Below the pieces are notes generated by a model, which saw only the letters and a program-made list of their open reading frames with translations, searched no databases and was not told the origin of the DNA. A stretch of DNA of 60,900 nt. Origin: Bdellovibrionales bacterium (GTDB lineage: Bacteria; Bdellovibrionota; Bdellovibrionia; Bdellovibrionales; UBA1609). Where the stretch lies: positions 1,959 through 62,858 of the forward strand of contig JAYQON010000006.1 in NCBI GenBank assembly GCA_038144835.1, in the 5' to 3' direction. Both the position numbers and the translations under genes were made by a program. This document shows positions 1 to 14,379 of the stretch, one piece after another (position 1 is the first letter of the stretch; every line of letters begins with the position of its first letter).

Positions 1-48
1 CTTTGCGGCTACTCAATGGCTAACTTTGCATCCTAATAAACCTGTTTA

Positions 49-83
49 AAGGCCATTAACGCTTTGTGTTAATGGCTTTTTTT
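49..83 (+). terminator. Intrinsic terminator upstream of the flagellin 1 promoter
   Basis: AAGGCCATTAAC-loop-GTTAATGGCTTT stem running into a T-tract. Confidence 0.75.
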
Positions 84-173
84 GGGGTCTTGCGAAAAAA
101 AAATTTCAACTCAGTTTTTTCCTAATATCAAATACTAGACGCGTCGCAATAATTGAAAAACTAGACCAAAGGC

Positions 174-200
174 TAAAGCTTCCTAGACCAAGGTCGATAA
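174..200 (+). promoter_or_regulatory. sigma28 (FliA) promoter of flagellin 1
   Basis: TAAA(174-177)-N15-GTCGATAA(193-200), near-consensus TAAA-N15-GCCGATAA, upstream of a flagellin. Confidence 0.8.
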
Positions 201-438
201 GACTCCTGAACACGTTGGAGCACTCGAAGCGAGTTCATTTCAGCAGTCACTGTGATGAGCCCGTCTAGAACTCCGAAGGCGTAGGGACAGTCACCCCTTC
301 GCCTTTGGGGGCCTCCAATAAACTAAAACAATTTAACCCGAAAGGGATGTCCTGTTCATCTTACCGTCGGCCGGACGCTGGCTGTGGGGGTGGGTTGAGC
401 AGCGGTCTTAAGGAAGGGCCAATATTCAGGAGGCCACC
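201..438 (+). promoter_or_regulatory. Long structured 5' leader of flagellin 1
   Basis: ~230 nt with several stems (CTCCGAAGGCGTAGGG/CCCTTCGCCTTTGGGG, CCC-GAAA-GGG, CTGTTCA/TGAGCAG); CTCCTGAA 203-210 can pair with the SD region TTCAGGAG 425-432. Confidence 0.6.
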
Positions 439-1269
439 ATGGGCTTAAGGATCAGTACCAACCTTGCGTCGGTATCGGCGCAAAGAGTTCTTACGAAGCA
501 GCAGCATCGCTTGGAGCATGCGCAACAGGCTCTCGCTTCAGGATCTCGAATCGTCAAAGCGGCGGACGATGCTGCCGGATTAGCAATTTCCGAAAATCTG
601 CGTGCTCAGGTCGCGGGTATCAAAATGGCTCGTAATAACGCCTACAATGCGCAGTCGTTGATTCAGGTTTCAGAAGGTGGTCTTAACGAAATCTCAAATA
701 TCTTAATTCGCTTGCGAGAGTTGGGTGTGCAGGCGGCGTCGGATACGGTCAGTAATGTTGAGAGATCATTTCTTGATCAAGAAGCGCAGCAGCTTATCAG
801 TGAAACTGATCGGATTGCTCGTTCCACCCGCTTTGGCAATATGCCTCTTCTGAGTGGTGCCGGGGAAGAGTTGGAATACCATGTGGGTGCCTTTTCAGAT
901 GAAAACGAAAACGTGATTCGCTACAAAATAACTGCTGATGCCACAGCGTCAAAACTGGGCATTGACTCTGTCTCAATTGCCGGCAAACAAGATGCTCGTT
1001 CAACCCTTGAGGCCGTAGATGCCGCGCTTGTGCAAATTGGTCAAATGCGCTCGGACTTCGGCGCTGTTCAAAGCCGATTGCTTATGACCACGAGCAATTT
1101 AGATATTCAAAACGAAAATTTACAAGGTGCTAAATCACGAATTTCAGATGCGGACATAGCTTTTGAAACGGCGGAAATGAACTCCGCGCAAATTTTGCAA
1201 GCGGCTTCGGTGGGAGTCCTTGCGCAAGCCAATCAAAACGGTGTGTCCGCATTGAAACTCATTGGCTAG
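439..1269 (+). CDS. fliC: Flagellin (paralog 1), 276 aa
   Basis: Flagellin N-terminal (ASGSRIVKAADDAAGLAISE) and C-terminal (SRISDADIAFE) motifs; SD AGGAGG. Confidence 0.97.
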   Translation: MGLRISTNLASVSAQRVLTKQQHRLEHAQQALASGSRIVKAADDAAGLAISENLRAQVAGIKMARNNAYNAQSLIQVSEGGLNEISNILIRLRELGVQAASDTVSNVERSFLDQEAQQLISETDRIARSTRFGNMPLLSGAGEELEYHVGAFSDENENVIRYKITADATASKLGIDSVSIAGKQDARSTLEAVDAALVQIGQMRSDFGAVQSRLLMTTSNLDIQNENLQGAKSRISDADIAFETAEMNSAQILQAASVGVLAQANQNGVSALKLIG

Positions 1270-1370
1270 CAAGTTGAATTTGTTTTTGAATGCGGATCTT
1301 TTTGACAGCCTTTGTAGATACGGCCGAGAAAAAGAAACGCTCGATATAATTTTAAACCATCTTAGAGTTT

Positions 1371-1447
1371 AGGGTCGTCGCCCACAGACTAGCGACCCTT
1401 AAGCCCGCCCTGGGGTTGCCCCACACACCCCAGGGTATTTTGTTTTC
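1371..1447 (+). ncRNA. Two-hairpin element ending in an intrinsic terminator (candidate sRNA or fliC1 trailer)
   Basis: AGGGTCG/CGACCCT and CCCTGGGGT/ACCCCAGGG stems, both loops contain CCCACA, followed by TATTTTGTTTT; TATAAT at 1345-1350. Confidence 0.45.
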
Positions 1448-1660
1448 TCCTCAAGCTATCCAAAATTTTTCCATTTTTTTAAAATTCAAAAAATTTTTGG
1501 CATTTTACTTTTCTAAACTTAGACCAACGTCGCTTGGTAAATCGTCGAGGAGACTTTGGTCTGAACATCACAAGTCATCAATTCGCTCCGATTTGAAATA
1601 AAAAAGCCCAACCTTGGTCTAGTTTCACCGCGACCATGGTCCAGTTTTCCAGGACTCGAC

Positions 1661-1687
1661 TTTAGTTCGCCCCGACCTGGCCGAACT
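1661..1687 (+). promoter_or_regulatory. Probable sigma28 promoter of flagellin 2
   Basis: TTTA-N15-GCCGAACT. Confidence 0.55.
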
Positions 1688-1913
1688 ACTAGGCAAGCAA
1701 GCGAAGCGGTCATTGGATCCGCCAGAGGTGAGAGTGCATTGGGAGTGACTGCCTGATGATAACTCGATCGAAGCTTCTGAGCGATATTCAGTTTCTGCTC
1801 CAACGTGTTCAACCAAGGCGCAGGGATGCGACGCTTCTCCACGATTTGTCCCCGAGTAGGTTCGGGGCGGGGGAGTCAGGCGAAGGGAGCCTAAACAAAA
1901 AAGGGAGGACCCT

Positions 1914-2744
1914 ATGGGTCTGAGGATTACCACAAACTTAGCCTCCATCTCCGCGCAGCGGTCGATGGCAGGCAGTCAGCGAGAAATCAATAAAAGTTTC
2001 TCGCAACTCGCTTCGGGAAGCCGAATTACAAAAGCGTCAGACGACGCTGCCGGTCTCTCTATTAGCGAAACCTTAAAATCCACTGTCCGCGGCTACGTGC
2101 AATCGCAACGTAATGCCAACGATGGTATGTCCATGGTCCAAGTTTCCGAAGGTGGACTGGGAGAGATTTCCAACATCCTGACGCGCATGCGTGAATTGGG
2201 TGTGCAAGCCGCTTCGGATACGGTTGGTGATACCGAGCGTGGTTTCATCGACAAAGAAGTGCAGCAGTTAAAGTTGGAGGTTCAGCGTATCGCCAAAACC
2301 ACCAAGTGGGGTGGATCGAACTTGCTGGATGGCTCTGGAAGTAACTACACATTTCAAGTTGATTTAAATAACGATGAATTTAATGACCGCATCGGCTTTG
2401 ATGCCAGCCAACAAGATGCAACCGTAGACACTTTGGGAATTTCGGGATTCGACTTTTCTGACCGAGCTGGTGCTCGTGAGGCGATTGAGATTCTTGAAAC
2501 CGCTCAACGTCAGGTGAATGGTTATCGCGCCAATTTGGGTGCGATTCAGAACCGACTAATGTCGACGGCGGACAACTTGGGTGTTGCGATTGAGAACTTC
2601 TCAGCGGCCAACTCTCGTATTCGAGATACTGATGTAGCTCAAAGTTCGGCCGAGTTAGCTCGCAACAACATCTTACTCAATGCGAGTGTGGGTGTGATGG
2701 CGCAAGCGAATAACCAGCCCGCAATGGCTTTGAAACTGATTTAA
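1914..2744 (+). CDS. fliC: Flagellin (paralog 2), 276 aa
   Basis: Flagellin N- and C-terminal motifs; SD GGGAGG. Confidence 0.97.
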   Translation: MGLRITTNLASISAQRSMAGSQREINKSFSQLASGSRITKASDDAAGLSISETLKSTVRGYVQSQRNANDGMSMVQVSEGGLGEISNILTRMRELGVQAASDTVGDTERGFIDKEVQQLKLEVQRIAKTTKWGGSNLLDGSGSNYTFQVDLNNDEFNDRIGFDASQQDATVDTLGISGFDFSDRAGAREAIEILETAQRQVNGYRANLGAIQNRLMSTADNLGVAIENFSAANSRIRDTDVAQSSAELARNNILLNASVGVMAQANNQPAMALKLI

Positions 2745-2769
2745 ATGATTCTTTAAGAGTATGTGTAAT

Positions 2770-2836
2770 GGAGGGCGTTCTCCTTCGCCCTCCGGTACCT
2801 TACCTACCCGGAGGATCTTCGTGTTCTCCGGGGTAC
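2770..2836 (+). ncRNA. Conserved two-hairpin 3' trailer motif (copy after flagellin 2)
   Basis: GGAGGGCG-TTCTCCTT-CGCCCTCC, then CCTTACCT and a CCCGGAGGA/TTCTCCGGG stem; same architecture recurs at 4081-4163. Confidence 0.5.
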
Positions 2837-3029
2837 TAAGGACACGCCTTTCAACCGTTTAACCTAGATCTATAAAAGGTCTACGAAGACAATGGTTGAG
2901 GTGTCTTAGGTCCGAGAGACTTTCATCGCAAGACTGATCCTCAGTCTTGAAAAAGCCCACTTAGGTCGCGAATTCCGCGACTGAAGTCCGGTTTTTATAT
3001 GCCTTTAGTCCAGATTCACCAGACGAGAC

Positions 3030-3056
3030 TTAAGCCTTCACCAGACTCGCCGATTG
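3030..3056 (+). promoter_or_regulatory. sigma28 promoter of flagellin 3
   Basis: TTAA-N15-GCCGATTG. Confidence 0.7.
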
Positions 3057-3228
3057 TTCTGGTGTGTGAGGCGCAGGACCTAGCCGTCCAGTGCCTCATT
3101 TAAAAAACAATAACCTAAAGCTCACGGATTGAATTGAGCTCTCCGGAAATAAGCTGAGTAGGTACGGCTTTATCCGGTGAGAGAGGGATTTCTTTGACTA
3201 AGCGCCCGTTGGCGCAAAGGAGAACACC

Positions 3229-4059
3229 ATGGGATTACGTGTAACAACAAATATTGCATCGATCAACGCGCAGAGATCGATGGCTGGCTCGCAGAGAGAA
3301 ATCACTAAGAGCTTCGCACAGTTGTCTTCCGGCAGCCGTATCACCAAAGCGGCTGACGATGCCGCTGGTCTGTCAATTAGTGAAACTTTAAAGAGCACAA
3401 TTCGTGGCTACAATCAGGCGCAACGTAACGCCAGTGATGCCATGTCCATGGTAGCTGTTGCTGAAGGTGGTCTTGGTGAGATTTCAAACATCTTAACTCG
3501 TCTACGTGAACTTGGTGTCCAGGCTTCCTCAGACACGGTTGGCGACACCGAAAGAAAGTTTATTGACAGTGAAGTTCAGCAGCTCAAGCTTGAAGCTGAA
3601 CGTATCTCTCAGAGTACTAAATACGGAAAAACGACTCTCATTAACGGTCAGGGTGAAAAGTTCGAGTTCCAAGTAGATATTAATAACGACGACTTCGTCG
3701 ATCGCATTGGCTTCCACCCCAGTGAAATTGATGCCACGACTAACAATCTGGGAATCTCGGGTTTCGACTTTTCGGATAAATTCCAAGCGCGCGAATCTCT
3801 CGAGGTCCTGGAAGAAGCTCAACGCACCGTCAACGGTCATCGCGCCACTCTCGGTGCGATTCAGAACCGATTAGTTTCAACTTCTGAAAATCTGGGTGTG
3901 GCTATCGAGAACTTTTCAGGAGCGAATTCACGTATCCGCGACACTGACATCGCTCAAAGCTCCTCGGAGTTGACACGCAATAATATTCTTCTGAACGCGA
4001 CGGTGGGTGTGTTGGCCCAGGCCAATCAGGCTCCATCTGCGGCTCTGAAGCTTCTCTAA
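3229..4059 (+). CDS. fliC: Flagellin (paralog 3), 276 aa
   Basis: Flagellin motifs; highly similar to paralog 2; SD AAGGAG. Confidence 0.97.
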   Translation: MGLRVTTNIASINAQRSMAGSQREITKSFAQLSSGSRITKAADDAAGLSISETLKSTIRGYNQAQRNASDAMSMVAVAEGGLGEISNILTRLRELGVQASSDTVGDTERKFIDSEVQQLKLEAERISQSTKYGKTTLINGQGEKFEFQVDINNDDFVDRIGFHPSEIDATTNNLGISGFDFSDKFQARESLEVLEEAQRTVNGHRATLGAIQNRLVSTSENLGVAIENFSGANSRIRDTDIAQSSSELTRNNILLNATVGVLAQANQAPSAALKLL

Positions 4060-4080
4060 TTTTAATATTGAATTTGATTC

Positions 4081-4163
4081 GCGGGAGATTGAGTTCTCCG
4101 TCTCCCGTGAGCCTTACCTTCCCCGGGAGGAATTCTGTAAAGGACAACTTCCGGGGTGCTTTT
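4081..4163 (+). ncRNA. Conserved two-hairpin 3' trailer motif / terminator (copy after flagellin 3)
   Basis: GCGGGAGA-(loop with GTTCTCC)-TCTCCCGT, CCTTACCT, CCCCGG..CCGGGG stem, then TTTT. Confidence 0.5.
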
Positions 4164-4202
4164 GTTGGTAAGTAAACCAATTTTTTAGGAAGTAAATCTC
4201 GT

Positions 4203-4808
4203 ATGAGACTCAACCAAAAAATTTTTCTTCTTATCTTGACGGTGCAAGTTGTGAATATTCACGCTACCAGTTTAAAAAAGGCCCACATCAAGGCGGGAAT
4301 TTATACCAACGGCAAATGTATTGTGATCGTGGAGCAAGACAAGCAAGGCAACCCTTTTGTAGAAATCGTGATGGCGTCTGATAAGCGAGCAAAGCTGTGC
4401 GACTCAGATGTGGATAAAGATTGCGGCGATATTCAAATACCGATTCGTCCAAGAATTACAGATCGAGGGGTAAACGATTTTTCTCTTTACCCGCGCAAAG
4501 TCGTGGAAAAAAATTTTCAAAGGAAGTCAGATGGCGCTATTGAAGTGACATTTGAGTCAAAAGAACAAAATGCTCTCATTTTCAATATTCATCACAGTCA
4601 GCTTTCACTCACGCTCAACGCTCACGGGCAGGTGACCGATGCGGCGGGTATGTGGGCGTTGGCCGAGGGTCGCTTTTCTGGATTAAAAATTTACTCTCGT
4701 GTGGTGGACCGCTGTAAGGGTCTCAAAGAGGATTCGCCTGCCGACCAGTCCGACCTGCCAAAGCCGAATAACCCTTCATCAAAACAGGATGTTAAAATTT
4801 CGCGTTGA
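4203..4808 (+). CDS. Hypothetical exported protein
   Basis: 201-aa ORF with an N-terminal hydrophobic signal-like segment and 4 Cys. Confidence 0.7.
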   Translation: MRLNQKIFLLILTVQVVNIHATSLKKAHIKAGIYTNGKCIVIVEQDKQGNPFVEIVMASDKRAKLCDSDVDKDCGDIQIPIRPRITDRGVNDFSLYPRKVVEKNFQRKSDGAIEVTFESKEQNALIFNIHHSQLSLTLNAHGQVTDAAGMWALAEGRFSGLKIYSRVVDRCKGLKEDSPADQSDLPKPNNPSSKQDVKISR

Positions 4809-7750: not shown

Positions 7751-8809
7751 ATGGCCGTATTGCATATTCTGATTTTACTGAATTTTATTTGGCTTTCTGC
7801 TCAGACTGGCGCGGAGTCAGTCGTCGACTCCAAATGTTTCGAAGCACTGTCGCAACTTGAAAAGGCATCAGAAAAACATGAGCTAATGGAATTAAAAAAA
7901 CGCTATGCAAGAATTCCTAGGTCTAAAGATGAGCAGCCAAAAAAAATTGATTCGAATGATGCCAGAAGGTTCGTGAATGCCGAGGACTGGGCGCTGGCTG
8001 AGTCGACTTTGGGCGAGCGCGCCCAGTTGTTTTACAGCGAACGCACGATGCTGGCGTGGTCGCGAGCCCGCGATTTTGCTATGGCCCATACGAGCGAAAC
8101 ACCGACGCCCGATCTCATGCGGCGTCTTCATGCTGAGGCAATGCAGGCGTTATCGTTTCATGGCTTCGAAGGCCGGCGATTAAAGCTGCGCTTCAATCGG
8201 GGAGAAATTGATAAGCTTGAATATGATCGACTATTAAAAGAGGCTTTCACCAAAGATGCCAACCCATCTGGAGTCGAGCATGCAAAGCTTGCTGGTCAGT
8301 TTCGCTCGGATCCGATCGATGATATTCATCATGGTGGATCCTCTTTTTCCTCAACGGGCGAGCGCTACTTTGAAGCCTCCGAGTTGGAGGCAGTTCGTCG
8401 TAGCCCATATATGCGAGTGATAGAAACCTCGGTGCGTGAGATCGAGCCGGGCAAATTTAAGGCGGACACTTTTTACACTCCTCCTCATAAGGTCAAAGAA
8501 GAAGTTGATCTCATTTTTAAGCGTTTGCACTCCGATTTGCGGGCTGTAAAAAATGACGATGATCTCATATTGGCGGTGGCGCGAATGCAAAAGCATTTGC
8601 TCATAGTTCACCCCTTTTTGGATGGAAATGGCCGTACCATTAGATTGTTGGGTGATATGATTTTCGAACGTCATGGTCTGCCTCCTCCAGTCTTGCTGCG
8701 CGAACAAGAGATCTCTCTTTCGGTTGAGCAGATAGCTAAGGATATGAAAACCGGAATGCGAATTTATGTTGATGAAAAAGAGAGGGTACTGAAAGGGACA
8801 TTCAAATGA
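7751..8809 (+). CDS. Exported Fic-domain protein (putative AMPylase)
   Basis: Canonical HPFLDGNGRTIR Fic motif; N-terminal signal peptide. Confidence 0.9.
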   Translation: MAVLHILILLNFIWLSAQTGAESVVDSKCFEALSQLEKASEKHELMELKKRYARIPRSKDEQPKKIDSNDARRFVNAEDWALAESTLGERAQLFYSERTMLAWSRARDFAMAHTSETPTPDLMRRLHAEAMQALSFHGFEGRRLKLRFNRGEIDKLEYDRLLKEAFTKDANPSGVEHAKLAGQFRSDPIDDIHHGGSSFSSTGERYFEASELEAVRRSPYMRVIETSVREIEPGKFKADTFYTPPHKVKEEVDLIFKRLHSDLRAVKNDDDLILAVARMQKHLLIVHPFLDGNGRTIRLLGDMIFERHGLPPPVLLREQEISLSVEQIAKDMKTGMRIYVDEKERVLKGTFK

Positions 8810-11880: not shown

Positions 11881-14379
11881 GTGCAGACTTCTTTTCTTCC
11901 TATTGACGATTTTCTTAGCGCAATCGTTAATAGCGTTAAACAGCGACATAGCGTGGTTTTGACAGCTACACCTGGGGCTGGAAAGACGACGCGCTTGCCT
12001 CCTCAGCTTCTTGGTTGTGTCACCGGTCAAGTCCTAGTTCTTCAGCCTCGGCGCATGGCTGCGGTAGCCGCCTGTCACCGTGTTTGTGAGGAGAACGGCT
12101 GGACGGTAGGGCAGGAAGCTGGTTACCAAGTACGCTTTGACTCCAAGGTCGGACCTGCGACACGTTTGATTTTTATGACCGATGCTTTGCTTTTGCGACG
12201 TCTGGTGGACGACCCAGAACTCCAAGGCATAGATTTAGTGGTGATTGATGAATTTCATGAGCGTAATCTCAATCAAGATTTAATTCTTGGGTATTTGCGT
12301 GAAATGCAGGAGCTAGGTCGGCCATTAAAAATGGTGATCATGTCTGCTACGTTAGAAGCTAAAAGACTGTCACAGTTTCTGTTAGATTGCGAGGTCATTG
12401 ATGTCCCGGGCAAGGTTTACCCTTTAGATCTACGTCACCAAAATCAAAGTTTAAGTTTACGCACCGATGGTGCGTTTTATCATCGCGTTGTCGATGCTGT
12501 TTTCGCCGCTGAGCAAGAGACTCAAGGTGACATTTTGGTTTTTCTTCCAGGGACGGGTGAAATTCAACGGGTTCGAGAACGTCTGATTGAAGCCAAACTT
12601 AGAAGTCGAGAAGTCGTTGAACTTCATGGTTCCCTTTCGTTGGAACAGCAACAAAAGGTATTGCGAGTTTCTCAAAGTCCTCGCGTCATACTTTCGACAA
12701 ATGTTGCTGAAGCCTCTGTGACTGTTCCGGGAGTAGACTATGTGATCGACACTGGGTTGGCTAAAGTGATGCAAACCCACCCGCGCACAGGCTTTTCGCA
12801 GTTGGAGCTCTCACGAATCTCTTTGTTTAGTGCCCACCAGCGCGCGGGTCGGGCGGCGCGACAAAAAGCGGGTGTCTGCCTACGCTTATGGACAATTTTT
12901 GAAGAACAGACACAGGCCCAAGAATCGGTGCCTGAGTGCCAGAGAGCTGAACTGACTCAAACAATGCTACTTTTGACTCATTTGGGGGTCACGCAGTTAA
13001 ACTCCTTTTCGTGGTATGATCACCCGCCGGCGTCGTTAGTTAGTTTGGCCAGGCAGTCGTTGCTTGCTCTTCGTGCAATCAACGATGATGGACAAATCAC
13101 TGCCTTTGGACGAAGACTTCTCCGCTACCCTTTGCCCCCACGTTGGGGCGGACTTTTGGCCTTAGGTGAAGACTGTGGTATGGGTCAATTGGCAGCCAAT
13201 GCGGCGGCAATTCTGAGCGAAAGAGACTTTGTTGACCGCGAGCGTTTCAAAACGAGCGCACCTTCTTTATTTGAATGTGATTTACGACTGCGTCTTGACC
13301 TTCTTGCTGATTTTGAACATGGGCGGCCTCCCGGCTATGTGAATGTGCGAACGGCCCAAGCCGTGCTCGAAACGGCTCGACAGTTGCGTGGAATGGTCGA
13401 TCAAAAATCGTCTACCAAGGGTGATTTGTCTCGCTTATTGTTGGGTTCTCAAGGTGATCGACTTTGTCGGCGTCGCGCAGCAACTCCCAGAGCATTAATG
13501 AGCGGGCGACGAGGAGTTCGGTTGGCGGATTCATCGCAGGTGCGAACTAGCGAATTTTTTATTGCTCTACAAGGGATGGATTTACCCAATCAATCAGACA
13601 CGCAGATCACCTTGGCAAGCGGGTTTTCAAAAGCCCGGCTTTTGGAAGAACTTGGCGATAAGGTCGAAGTCGCGCAGGACGTTTGGTACGATCCGGACAA
13701 AGAAGTATTCTTCAATCGTAGAGTTCGCACGATAGGAAGTCTCCCCATAGAAGAGCCGACACTAACTCCGGCTTTGCCCGAAGTGGTGGCTGGAAAAATG
13801 GTCGAAATACTAGTGCAAAATTGGAGTCAACTGACGCAGAGGCATAAGGGCTTGCTGGCATGGTTAGAGCGCTGGAGGTTTTTTGTTCGCCATCGGCCCG
13901 AGCATGCCTCGGAGTTAAATGCGGAGGCTATAAAAAGATGTTGTGAAATGGCAGGTTATGGACGTGTGAGGCTGAGCGATGTGCTTGAACAAGATCTCGC
14001 TGCTCTCATTGAAATGGCCTTACCGTCTTCTTTGGTTCGTGATTTTGATCGTGAAGTTCCATCGTTTTTTTGTGCCCCCAGTGGTTTAGAGCATCTGATT
14101 GTGTATGGTGATTTGCATTCGGCTTACGTTGATGTGCGTTTACAAGAGATGTTTGGTCTGCTGACAACACCGCGTATTCTTTTTGGTCAAGTTCCTTTAA
14201 CTTTTCGGCTCTTGGGTCCAAATTTCAGACCTGTGCAGGTCACGTCCGATTTGGCTAGCTTTTGGAAAAATGGATATCCTGAGGTTCGAAAAGATCTACG
14301 AGCGCGCTACCCTAAGCATTCCTGGCCAGAAAATCCACTGACGGCCAAACCCGAAGCTAAAGGACGGCGCCGTTCATAG
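11881..14379 (+). CDS. hrpB: ATP-dependent DEAH-box RNA helicase HrpB
   Basis: GAGKTT, DEFHER, MSAT, QRAGRAAR; C-terminal YPKHSWPENP. Confidence 0.95.
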   Translation: MQTSFLPIDDFLSAIVNSVKQRHSVVLTATPGAGKTTRLPPQLLGCVTGQVLVLQPRRMAAVAACHRVCEENGWTVGQEAGYQVRFDSKVGPATRLIFMTDALLLRRLVDDPELQGIDLVVIDEFHERNLNQDLILGYLREMQELGRPLKMVIMSATLEAKRLSQFLLDCEVIDVPGKVYPLDLRHQNQSLSLRTDGAFYHRVVDAVFAAEQETQGDILVFLPGTGEIQRVRERLIEAKLRSREVVELHGSLSLEQQQKVLRVSQSPRVILSTNVAEASVTVPGVDYVIDTGLAKVMQTHPRTGFSQLELSRISLFSAHQRAGRAARQKAGVCLRLWTIFEEQTQAQESVPECQRAELTQTMLLLTHLGVTQLNSFSWYDHPPASLVSLARQSLLALRAINDDGQITAFGRRLLRYPLPPRWGGLLALGEDCGMGQLAANAAAILSERDFVDRERFKTSAPSLFECDLRLRLDLLADFEHGRPPGYVNVRTAQAVLETARQLRGMVDQKSSTKGDLSRLLLGSQGDRLCRRRAATPRALMSGRRGVRLADSSQVRTSEFFIALQGMDLPNQSDTQITLASGFSKARLLEELGDKVEVAQDVWYDPDKEVFFNRRVRTIGSLPIEEPTLTPALPEVVAGKMVEILVQNWSQLTQRHKGLLAWLERWRFFVRHRPEHASELNAEAIKRCCEMAGYGRVRLSDVLEQDLAALIEMALPSSLVRDFDREVPSFFCAPSGLEHLIVYGDLHSAYVDVRLQEMFGLLTTPRILFGQVPLTFRLLGPNFRPVQVTSDLASFWKNGYPEVRKDLRARYPKHSWPENPLTAKPEAKGRRRS

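Follow-up and report, generated by a model that had tools for sequence, protein, structure and literature searches.

How a flagellar filament is built in ordered blocks from several near-identical flagellins, apparently all expressed from sigma28-type promoters, is an open question. The DNA analysed here (the window) is a stretch of 60,900 nucleotides (nt) from a Bdellovibrionales bacterium (contig JAYQON010000006.1, positions 1,959 to 62,858). It opens within a cluster of four flagellin genes, f0, f1, f2 and f3; f4, f5 and f6 are on other contigs of this genome (G000). An earlier inspection of the letters alone, called here the original prediction, had proposed that the leader of f2 pairs in trans with that of f1. 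Judging from sequence conservation, f1 and f2 form a real, order-wide system of leader-to-leader pairing, one that is probably undescribed. The flagellin mRNAs, or leader pieces cut from them, very probably pair in trans; that the f2 leader turns down f1 translation has, by the folding models, about an even chance.

The f1 5′ end and its site in the f2 leader

The genes f1 (439–1269) and f2 (1914–2744) are both on the + strand and encode flagellins of 276 aa, presumably of the FliC1 and the FliC2 type, respectively. With what we take to be the sigma28 consensus, a putative promoter of this type could be called separately for each of f0–f3. That of f1, of the sigma28/FliA type (174–200, + strand; TAAAG, a 15-nt spacing and GTCGATAA), has its predicted +1 at 208, and that of f2 (1661–1687, + strand) at about 1695. 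The promoter element is kept in nearly all f1 orthologs. Both start sites were placed at the eighth base after the −10 octamer, a rule taken from the mapped fliC2 start of Bdellovibrio bacteriovorus in Table S2 of PMC3627812. Because a terminator-like hairpin (~1408–1445) stands 3′ of f1, f1 and f2 are likely to be separate transcripts.

Nucleotides 207–222 are the exact complement of the f2 leader site (1796–1811, + strand), as had been predicted, and the 15-nt f1 5′ end (208–222, + strand) begins the match at the predicted +1. The claim that both segments belong to same-strand leaders also held, each being downstream of a sigma28-type promoter and on the coding strand. The 16-mer, and each of its 12-mers, occurs at only these two places in the 3.14-Mb genome. 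Counted from the predicted +1, the match is 15 nt, compared with at most 11 nt in 1000 dinucleotide shuffles of the f2 leader. A complement of at least 15 nt was found in none of 4199 same-strand pairs of upstream regions within 5 kb, and in 230 of 2,685,403 pairs genome-wide; these background regions were a crude 230-nt cut, outside which the focal f1/f2 pair itself fell.

The original prediction had extended the match into a collinear duplex of 1744–1811 across 207–251. This long duplex is peculiar to the focal genome, where truncated leaders (208–330 with 1697–1830) do form it at −17.1 kcal/mol, against a mean of −4.0 and a best value of −12.4 in 60 shuffles. With the leaders at full length, only 208–222:1796–1810 and three stray pairs formed, at −19.5 kcal/mol. 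The proposed middle blocks (223–242) could not be upheld, being matches of 4–7 nt with energies like those of shuffles in 13/13 genus genomes. A further block, 295–304 with 1878–1887, is an exact complement as claimed. It is neither beyond chance (a 10-nt complement arose in 34 of 1000 shuffles) nor conserved (10 nt in the focal genome only, 4–7 nt in 12 other genus genomes), and 295–304 is a paired hairpin arm with a mean unpaired probability of 0.16.

Conservation and covariation

Flagellin loci were sampled from the genus, the family and the order. An f1-type match was found in 136 of 198 order genomes, and in 61 Bdellovibrionales genomes both the f1 and an f2-type leader could be used. In 52 of these 61, a duplex of −18 kcal/mol or better formed between an f2-type leader and the initial 18 bases of f1, and in 49 the duplex beat all 40 shuffles. 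The median energy was −25.3 kcal/mol for leaders of the same genome, compared to −17.8 kcal/mol across genomes. Divergent f1 variants (G016, G032, G038, G043) paired best with the partner from their own genome.

Covariation was counted in a register chosen by Watson–Crick matches only. Among 714 in-register cells from 51 genomes, 613 were unchanged, 43 were double changes, 28 were G–U pairs, 7 were A–C and 23 were other mismatches. The f1 base had changed in 60 cells, and a Watson–Crick pair was restored in 43 of them. Parsimony on one gene tree gave about 35 origins of these changes, a figure that may be too high for the reasons given below. Column counts of 80 and 91 changes were discarded, as they were inflated by register shifts and by credit for G–U pairs.

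Each partner is a gene of its own, which may lie as much as 21 kb away or on another contig. The sense-to-sense fit was kept at three loci with an inverted partner gene (G026, L108, L126), and also at a partner distance of 15–21 kb (G006, G007, G183). This argues for sense RNA pairing in trans and against a DNA repeat. In the genomes of the flagellin tree, a single f2/f3-clade leader per genome holds the f1-partner site (−19 to −30 kcal/mol), while the other paralog leaders gave −8 to −16 kcal/mol against the f1 5′ end. The leader of f3 (3229–4059, + strand) is without the site and serves as a specificity control. In the genus scan, which covered f4–f6 in part of the genomes, no conserved leader–leader complement with f3, f4, f5 or f6 was found. 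The f1 and f2 leaders are complementary, they covary, and the match is specific for one partner paralog per genome. Since matching mutations have kept the fit across about fifty genomes, the two leader RNAs very probably pair in the cell; the predicted trans pairing between leaders of paralogous flagellin mRNAs was thereby strongly borne out by covariation in orthologous loci.

A second f1/f2 contact, and the contacts with f0

The f1 leader opens with a module of about 110 nt (208–318) that has two hairpins with similar loops. Hairpin 1 (233–260, + strand; loop 244–249) contains, at 233–248, a 16-nt complement of the f0 5′ end (contig C6:1050–1065, upstream of the window). Hairpin 2 (273–308, + strand) has a covarying stem and an 8-nt loop (287–294), in which CAGUCAC (288–294) is the predicted kissing partner of the loop AGUGACUG (1744–1751) of an f2 leader hairpin (1737–1758, + strand). 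The two kissing loops are predicted to be accessible, with modelled unpaired probabilities of 0.75 and 0.83.

The f2 loop and f1 loop 2 were both altered in 7 of 52 genomes, with hairpin 1 unaltered in 3 of these; in 14 genomes the hairpin-1 motif was missing, yet the loop–loop match was retained. The original prediction had paired 1744–1752 with 243–251. That exact complement is present, but 243–251 was rejected as the main partner, because the covariation of the f2 loop tracks the loop at 288–294, and 233–248 is the partner of f0. Exceptions were G036 and G088, where the f2 loop matches the sole such motif found, at +35 to +38, and G020, which is without a hairpin-2 match. No f2 loop motif was found in 5 of the 52 genomes. 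The apparent loop–loop mismatches of G175 and L121 were a pattern artefact and a wobble, respectively. What is conserved between the two leaders is thus a pair of contacts: the f1 5′ end is captured over 15 bp, and the loops meet independently over 7 bp (1745–1751 with 288–294).

The gene f0 ends at window position 36, and its start is upstream of the window on contig C6. Its 5′ end gave −18 kcal/mol or better with f1 hairpin 1 in 51 of 54 genomes. Changed cells in this f0/f1 match were restored in 73 of 89 cases; of 10 motifs that had diverged too far for alignment, 7 nevertheless pair. A further contact involves the f1 trailer (1373–1445, + strand), which consists of a hairpin with the loop GCCCACAGAC (1380–1389), followed by the terminator-like hairpin. 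The loop is complementary to C6:1070–1079 in the f0 leader, with 10 bp kept across 14 genus genomes; a trailer/leader complement of at least 9 nt occurs in 38 of 50 genomes (no null was computed; a few are likely to be chance). In the models, this part of the f0 leader otherwise covers the f0 start codon by pairing; when it was blocked, the modelled opening cost of f0 fell from 23.8 to 13.1 kcal/mol here (median from 13.7 to 10.8 in 50 genomes). The sampled stretches of genus g42 yielded no f0, and the g42 f1 leaders are without the f0 site. It may be noted that f0 (C6:1050–1148) often starts with TTG or GTG within the predicted inhibitory helix.

A predicted switch at the f1 ribosome-binding site

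The f1/f2 contact sites are located 103–230 nt upstream of the start codons, in the two 5′ leaders. Within f1, the putative switch element GGCCUCCAA (310–318, + strand) is predicted to pair either with GUUGGAG (214–220), in the nascent RNA, or with the Shine–Dalgarno (SD) region (429–435, + strand; GGAGGCC), which in several genomes repeats the f1 5′ motif nearly letter for letter. In nascent folds the f1 5′ end paired with the equivalent of 310–318 in 51 of 56 leaders. Of the 56 full folds, 27 were dominated by pairing between the element and the SD region and 9 by pairing with the 5′ end.

Capture of the f1 5′ end was compared with the trapped state in 51 leaders, five leaders without the helix being left out. 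Capture raised the modelled cost of opening the ribosome-binding site (RBS) by a median of 1.8 kcal/mol, and by 4.8 kcal/mol here. The rise exceeded 1 kcal/mol in 29 leaders (in the genus, 11 of 15) and 3 kcal/mol in 19; a fall of more than 1 kcal/mol was seen in 2. The original prediction, by which the f1 5′ end itself can pair with the SD region, did not stand. That pairing uses 203–210, five bases of which are upstream of the predicted +1; from +1 to +12 the match to the SD region is only 2–3 nt in 13/13 genus genomes, and the conserved SD partner is 310–316.

From these folds the following course may be proposed. GUUGGAG of the nascent f1 5′ end would pair with 310–318, leaving the SD region open. 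The f2 leader would dock by the 7-bp loop–loop contact and by the free 5′ bases 208–213 of f1. As the f2 site is a longer copy of 310–318, it would displace that element: 1796–1810 would mimic 310–318, extend further, and form the 15-bp duplex by strand displacement. The freed 310–316 would then pair with 429–435 and lower f1 translation. In parallel, the f0 5′ end may invade f1 hairpin 1 at 233–248, and the f1 trailer loop may unlock the helix in which the f0 start site is buried. The outcome would be a chain of f0, f1 and f2 by which flagellin outputs are linked post-transcriptionally. Apart from complementarity and covariation, every step comes from folding models. We consider it likely that the pairing affects flagellin output; for the direction (f2 lowering f1) and for this particular switch, the modelling leaves the chances evenly balanced.

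Counterparts in B. bacteriovorus and expression

In B. bacteriovorus, the RNA called APsRNA3 has a FliA promoter and lies 276–149 nt upstream of fliC1 (Bd0604); it is an abundant attack-phase RNA, called as a separate RNA of 128 nt, with 14,726 reads per kilobase per million mapped reads (RPKM), about 7-fold above fliC2 (PMC3627812). When compared by eye with Fig. S1 of that paper, APsRNA3 is like the 208–318 module in its 5′ ACGUUGG motif, its CAAUCAC-loop hairpin and its CUCCAA element. APsRNA4 starts 30 nt past the fliC1 stop (PMC3627812), the position that the f1 trailer occupies in the window. As far as the accessible part of PMC3627812 goes, it names no target for APsRNA3 or APsRNA4, no link with a flagellin gene, and no homology outside B. 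bacteriovorus. The f1 module, unlike APsRNA3 as described there, is kept throughout the order and finds partners in the leaders of paralogs.

From this resemblance, the f1 module is taken to be homologous to the expressed APsRNA3. Because of this homology and of the position of APsRNA3 upstream of fliC1, we infer that the module is transcribed and that f1 corresponds to FliC1. Adjacency and the gene tree point to f2 as FliC2. APsRNA3, so far an orphan RNA, thereby gains a candidate partner.

RNA-seq contigs (not reads) were placed on locus L128 for 4 of the 16 RNA runs that contain it, and they cover both leaders. In run X11 the contigs start precisely at the two predicted +1 sites (1351 and 3551 in L128), which, coming from one run, is a weak hint. 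The starts were 1390 and 3620 in run X16 and 1468 and 3572 in run X5, and run X1 runs through. In two of the runs the contigs continue from the leader into the coding region, although contigs cannot prove a single transcript.

Weighing of the proposed switch and of alternatives

Several observations weigh against the switch or the pairing on which it is built. The capture effect was at most 1 kcal/mol in 22 of the 51 leaders, and −0.9 to 2.7 kcal/mol in genus g42 (7 genomes). At equilibrium, the median opening cost of the f1 RBS in 52 genomes was 10.5 kcal/mol and rose only to 11.4 kcal/mol when the 5′ end was blocked; the switch would therefore depend on a co-transcriptional trap. In L101, L103 and L106, triple covariation kept the 5′-end pairings and weakened the SD pairing. 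The RPKM values of fliC1 and fliC2 are 11,984 and 1,932, a ratio of about 6 (first RPKM column of Table S1 in PMC3627812, read as attack phase). At such a ratio, f2 would suffice to silence no more than a fraction of f1 in that phase, and the excess would suit f1 acting on f2. In the single mutants of Iida et al., the band intensities of the other flagellins are given as similar (PMC2791853). Nine of the 61 genomes did not reach the energy cut: three (G041, G097, G173) have a complement of 11–13 nt at a shifted start, the sampled leaders of five (G024, G081, G099, G100, G109) contain no f1-partner site, and for G002 only the f3 leader, and not that of f2, was sampled. Finally, the parsimony origins may be overcounted, as related genomes are not independent, a single gene tree was used, and the register is shifted in g42.

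That f1 is the regulator instead is a tentative alternative, and a rather doubtful one. The 208–318 module, whole or as an APsRNA3-like small RNA (sRNA), would in excess bind the f2 mRNA and change either its stability, through RNase E/G or RNase III, or how readily CsrA reaches a GGA hairpin (1818–1830) located 7 nt downstream of the site. RNase III, RNase E/G, CsrA and FliW are all present in the genome, and a GGA-loop hairpin follows the site on its 3′ side in most f2-type leaders, although not in genus g42. The status of APsRNA3 as a separate 128-nt RNA about 7-fold above fliC2 (PMC3627812), and that of FliC2 as a minor filament component (PMC2791853), would fit as well. The module is, however, without a U-tract terminator, and the contigs of the two RNA runs mentioned above go on from leader to coding region, with the same limit on what contigs can prove. 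A direct block of the f2 RBS found no support, the mean modelled change on binding being −0.13 kcal/mol (more than 1 kcal/mol lower in 6 and more than 1 higher in 6 of 52 genomes). With the modelled f2 RBS thus unresponsive, an effect of f1 on f2 would need RNA stability or CsrA.

The same unresponsive RBS agrees with a mainly structural role, which we think unlikely. Here the f0, f1 and f2 mRNAs, along with 5′–3′ contacts within messages, would form a complex that is localised or co-translated near the export gate, and subunit order would follow RNA assembly. There are two separate contacts per pair, and own leader–trailer complements were seen in 27 of 42 f2-type genes (no null was computed). 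The f1 sites for f0 (233–248) and f2 (208–222 and 288–294) do not overlap, so that a three-RNA complex is sterically allowed. The f1 trailer, on the other hand, is predicted to unlock the f0 start site, which looks regulatory, and f4, f5 and f6 showed no conserved leader–leader complement in the genus scan.

It is highly improbable that the match is a feature of the DNA (an inverted site for recombination or for a binding protein, or a product of gene conversion), or the result of an antisense transcript, cis read-through or chance. The two segments do make an inverted repeat flanking f1 in the focal genome, and most positions of the core do not vary (613 of 714 cells). Against this, G–U outnumbers A–C by 28 to 7 on the sense strands in a register set by Watson–Crick pairs only, the relation tracks the mRNA strand at three inverted loci, and in two different genes the match begins at the predicted +1. 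Between f1 and f2 there are both a terminator-like hairpin and a promoter for f2 alone, and chance is excluded by the shuffles and the background.

To return to the proposed switch, FliC1 and FliC2 form adjacent blocks of the B. bacteriovorus filament, the order of which is FliC3, FliC5, FliC1, FliC2, FliC6 (PMC2791853). A lowering of f1 by f2, if true, would help to build the flagellum in ordered segments. A wider scheme, which we put forward as speculative and rather improbable, is a chaperone-free mRNA relay: each message would recognise the next paralog by two contacts, f1 unlocking f0 and f2 locking f1, and the order and amounts of flagellin would be set by mRNA–mRNA assembly, possibly in a multi-mRNA complex, and not by promoters or dedicated sRNAs. 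The f1/f2 finding provides exact base pairs, and natural compensatory alleles, for mutation in a model that is cultivable and non-pathogenic.

Relation to known RNA pairing systems

In the IS10 RNA-IN/RNA-OUT pair and in plasmid kissing-loop antisense systems, complementarity is long and perfect, and a free 5′ end or a loop starts the pairing. The invasion of f1 hairpin 1 by f0 and the contact of the f2 loop with the f1 loop are predicted to start in a like manner. Complementarity is automatic in those systems, because both RNAs of a pair come from the two strands of a single locus. That of f1 and f2, in contrast, is kept between separate genes by compensatory mutation.

FlaX of Vibrio cholerae resembles the f1/f2 case in that RNA of a flagellin transcript pairs with the 5′ untranslated region (UTR) of a paralog; it is described as pairing at several sites and as changing filament composition (PMC11879080; bioRxiv 10.64898/2026.08.28.747715). 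According to PMC11879080, FlaX is cut by RNase E from a 3′ UTR, is bound by ProQ, and covers the SD and standby sites directly. The f1 and f2 segments, unlike FlaX, are both in 5′ leaders, and only the contact between the f1 trailer and the f0 leader has a 3′-UTR geometry. Both start codons lie over 100 nt downstream of these f1 and f2 sites, and the effect predicted by the models is an indirect refolding. A further difference is that neither Hfq (PF17209) nor ProQ (PF04352) gave a match in G000, which is listed as 100% complete.

In the hly–prsA2 case of Listeria monocytogenes, an mRNA likewise pairs in trans with the 5′ end of another and couples functionally linked genes (PMC8722363). With this type f1/f2 shares separately encoded mRNAs and a sense-to-sense complementarity kept by selection. 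There, a 3′ UTR pairs with a 5′ UTR, the genes are not paralogous, and the pairing protects from RNase J1 (PMC8722363); in the present genome no TIGR00649 match above the cut-off, and hence no RNase J match, was found.

An Rfam 15 scan of window positions 1–4300 gave three weak matches, all far below gathering scores. No published description of f1/f2 leader pairing was found in the literature covered, most subscription journals being outside that coverage. The f1/f2 system is probably a kind of trans mRNA–mRNA regulation, and one that lacks defining features of each of FlaX, hly–prsA2 and the loop-initiated antisense pairs. Few bacterial mRNA–mRNA pairings are documented. A chain of paralog leaders that dozens of compensatory changes have maintained across an order, and that occurs where neither Hfq nor ProQ gave a match in the genome, would, if true, widen the known modes of such regulation.

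Other features of the cluster

The leaders of f2 and f3 have a hairpin with the loop GAGUAGGU (1854–1861 and 3156–3163), and the f2/f3 trailers have ACCUAC (2800–2808). The leader loop and the trailer motif co-vary (L104, G030, G096, G157), and an exact own-trailer complement of at least 6 nt was present in 27 of the 42 f2-type genes. Going by these matches, a 5′–3′ closure of each mRNA is possible. In the first trailer hairpins of f2 and f3 (2777–2785 and 4093–4099), the loop is rich in C and U and is the complement of the SD region of f2 or f3 (3219–3227); a similar leader/trailer match was seen for f6. In f1, a conserved trailer motif (1398–1406) is complementary to the first codons of the gene (442–450), and in most genomes of the genus there is a match between the trailer loop and the f1 leader as well.

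Conserved GGA-loop hairpins in the f1 (338–352) and f2 (1818–1830) leaders resemble CsrA sites, with the motif as given in PMC13443453. The genes csrA and fliW adjoin each other (G000 C42:3529–4265). CTAGAC/CTGGAC-type repeats occur at 135–194, upstream of and inside the f1 promoter, and in reverse orientation at 1612–1660, upstream of the f2 promoter; they are kept in relatives. Being located upstream of +1, these repeats are likely to be DNA sites for a regulator. Farther along the window, the translation of an open reading frame at 7751–8809 has what we take to be a Fic-like motif, and that of another at 11881–14379 presumably resembles an RNA helicase of the HrpB type.

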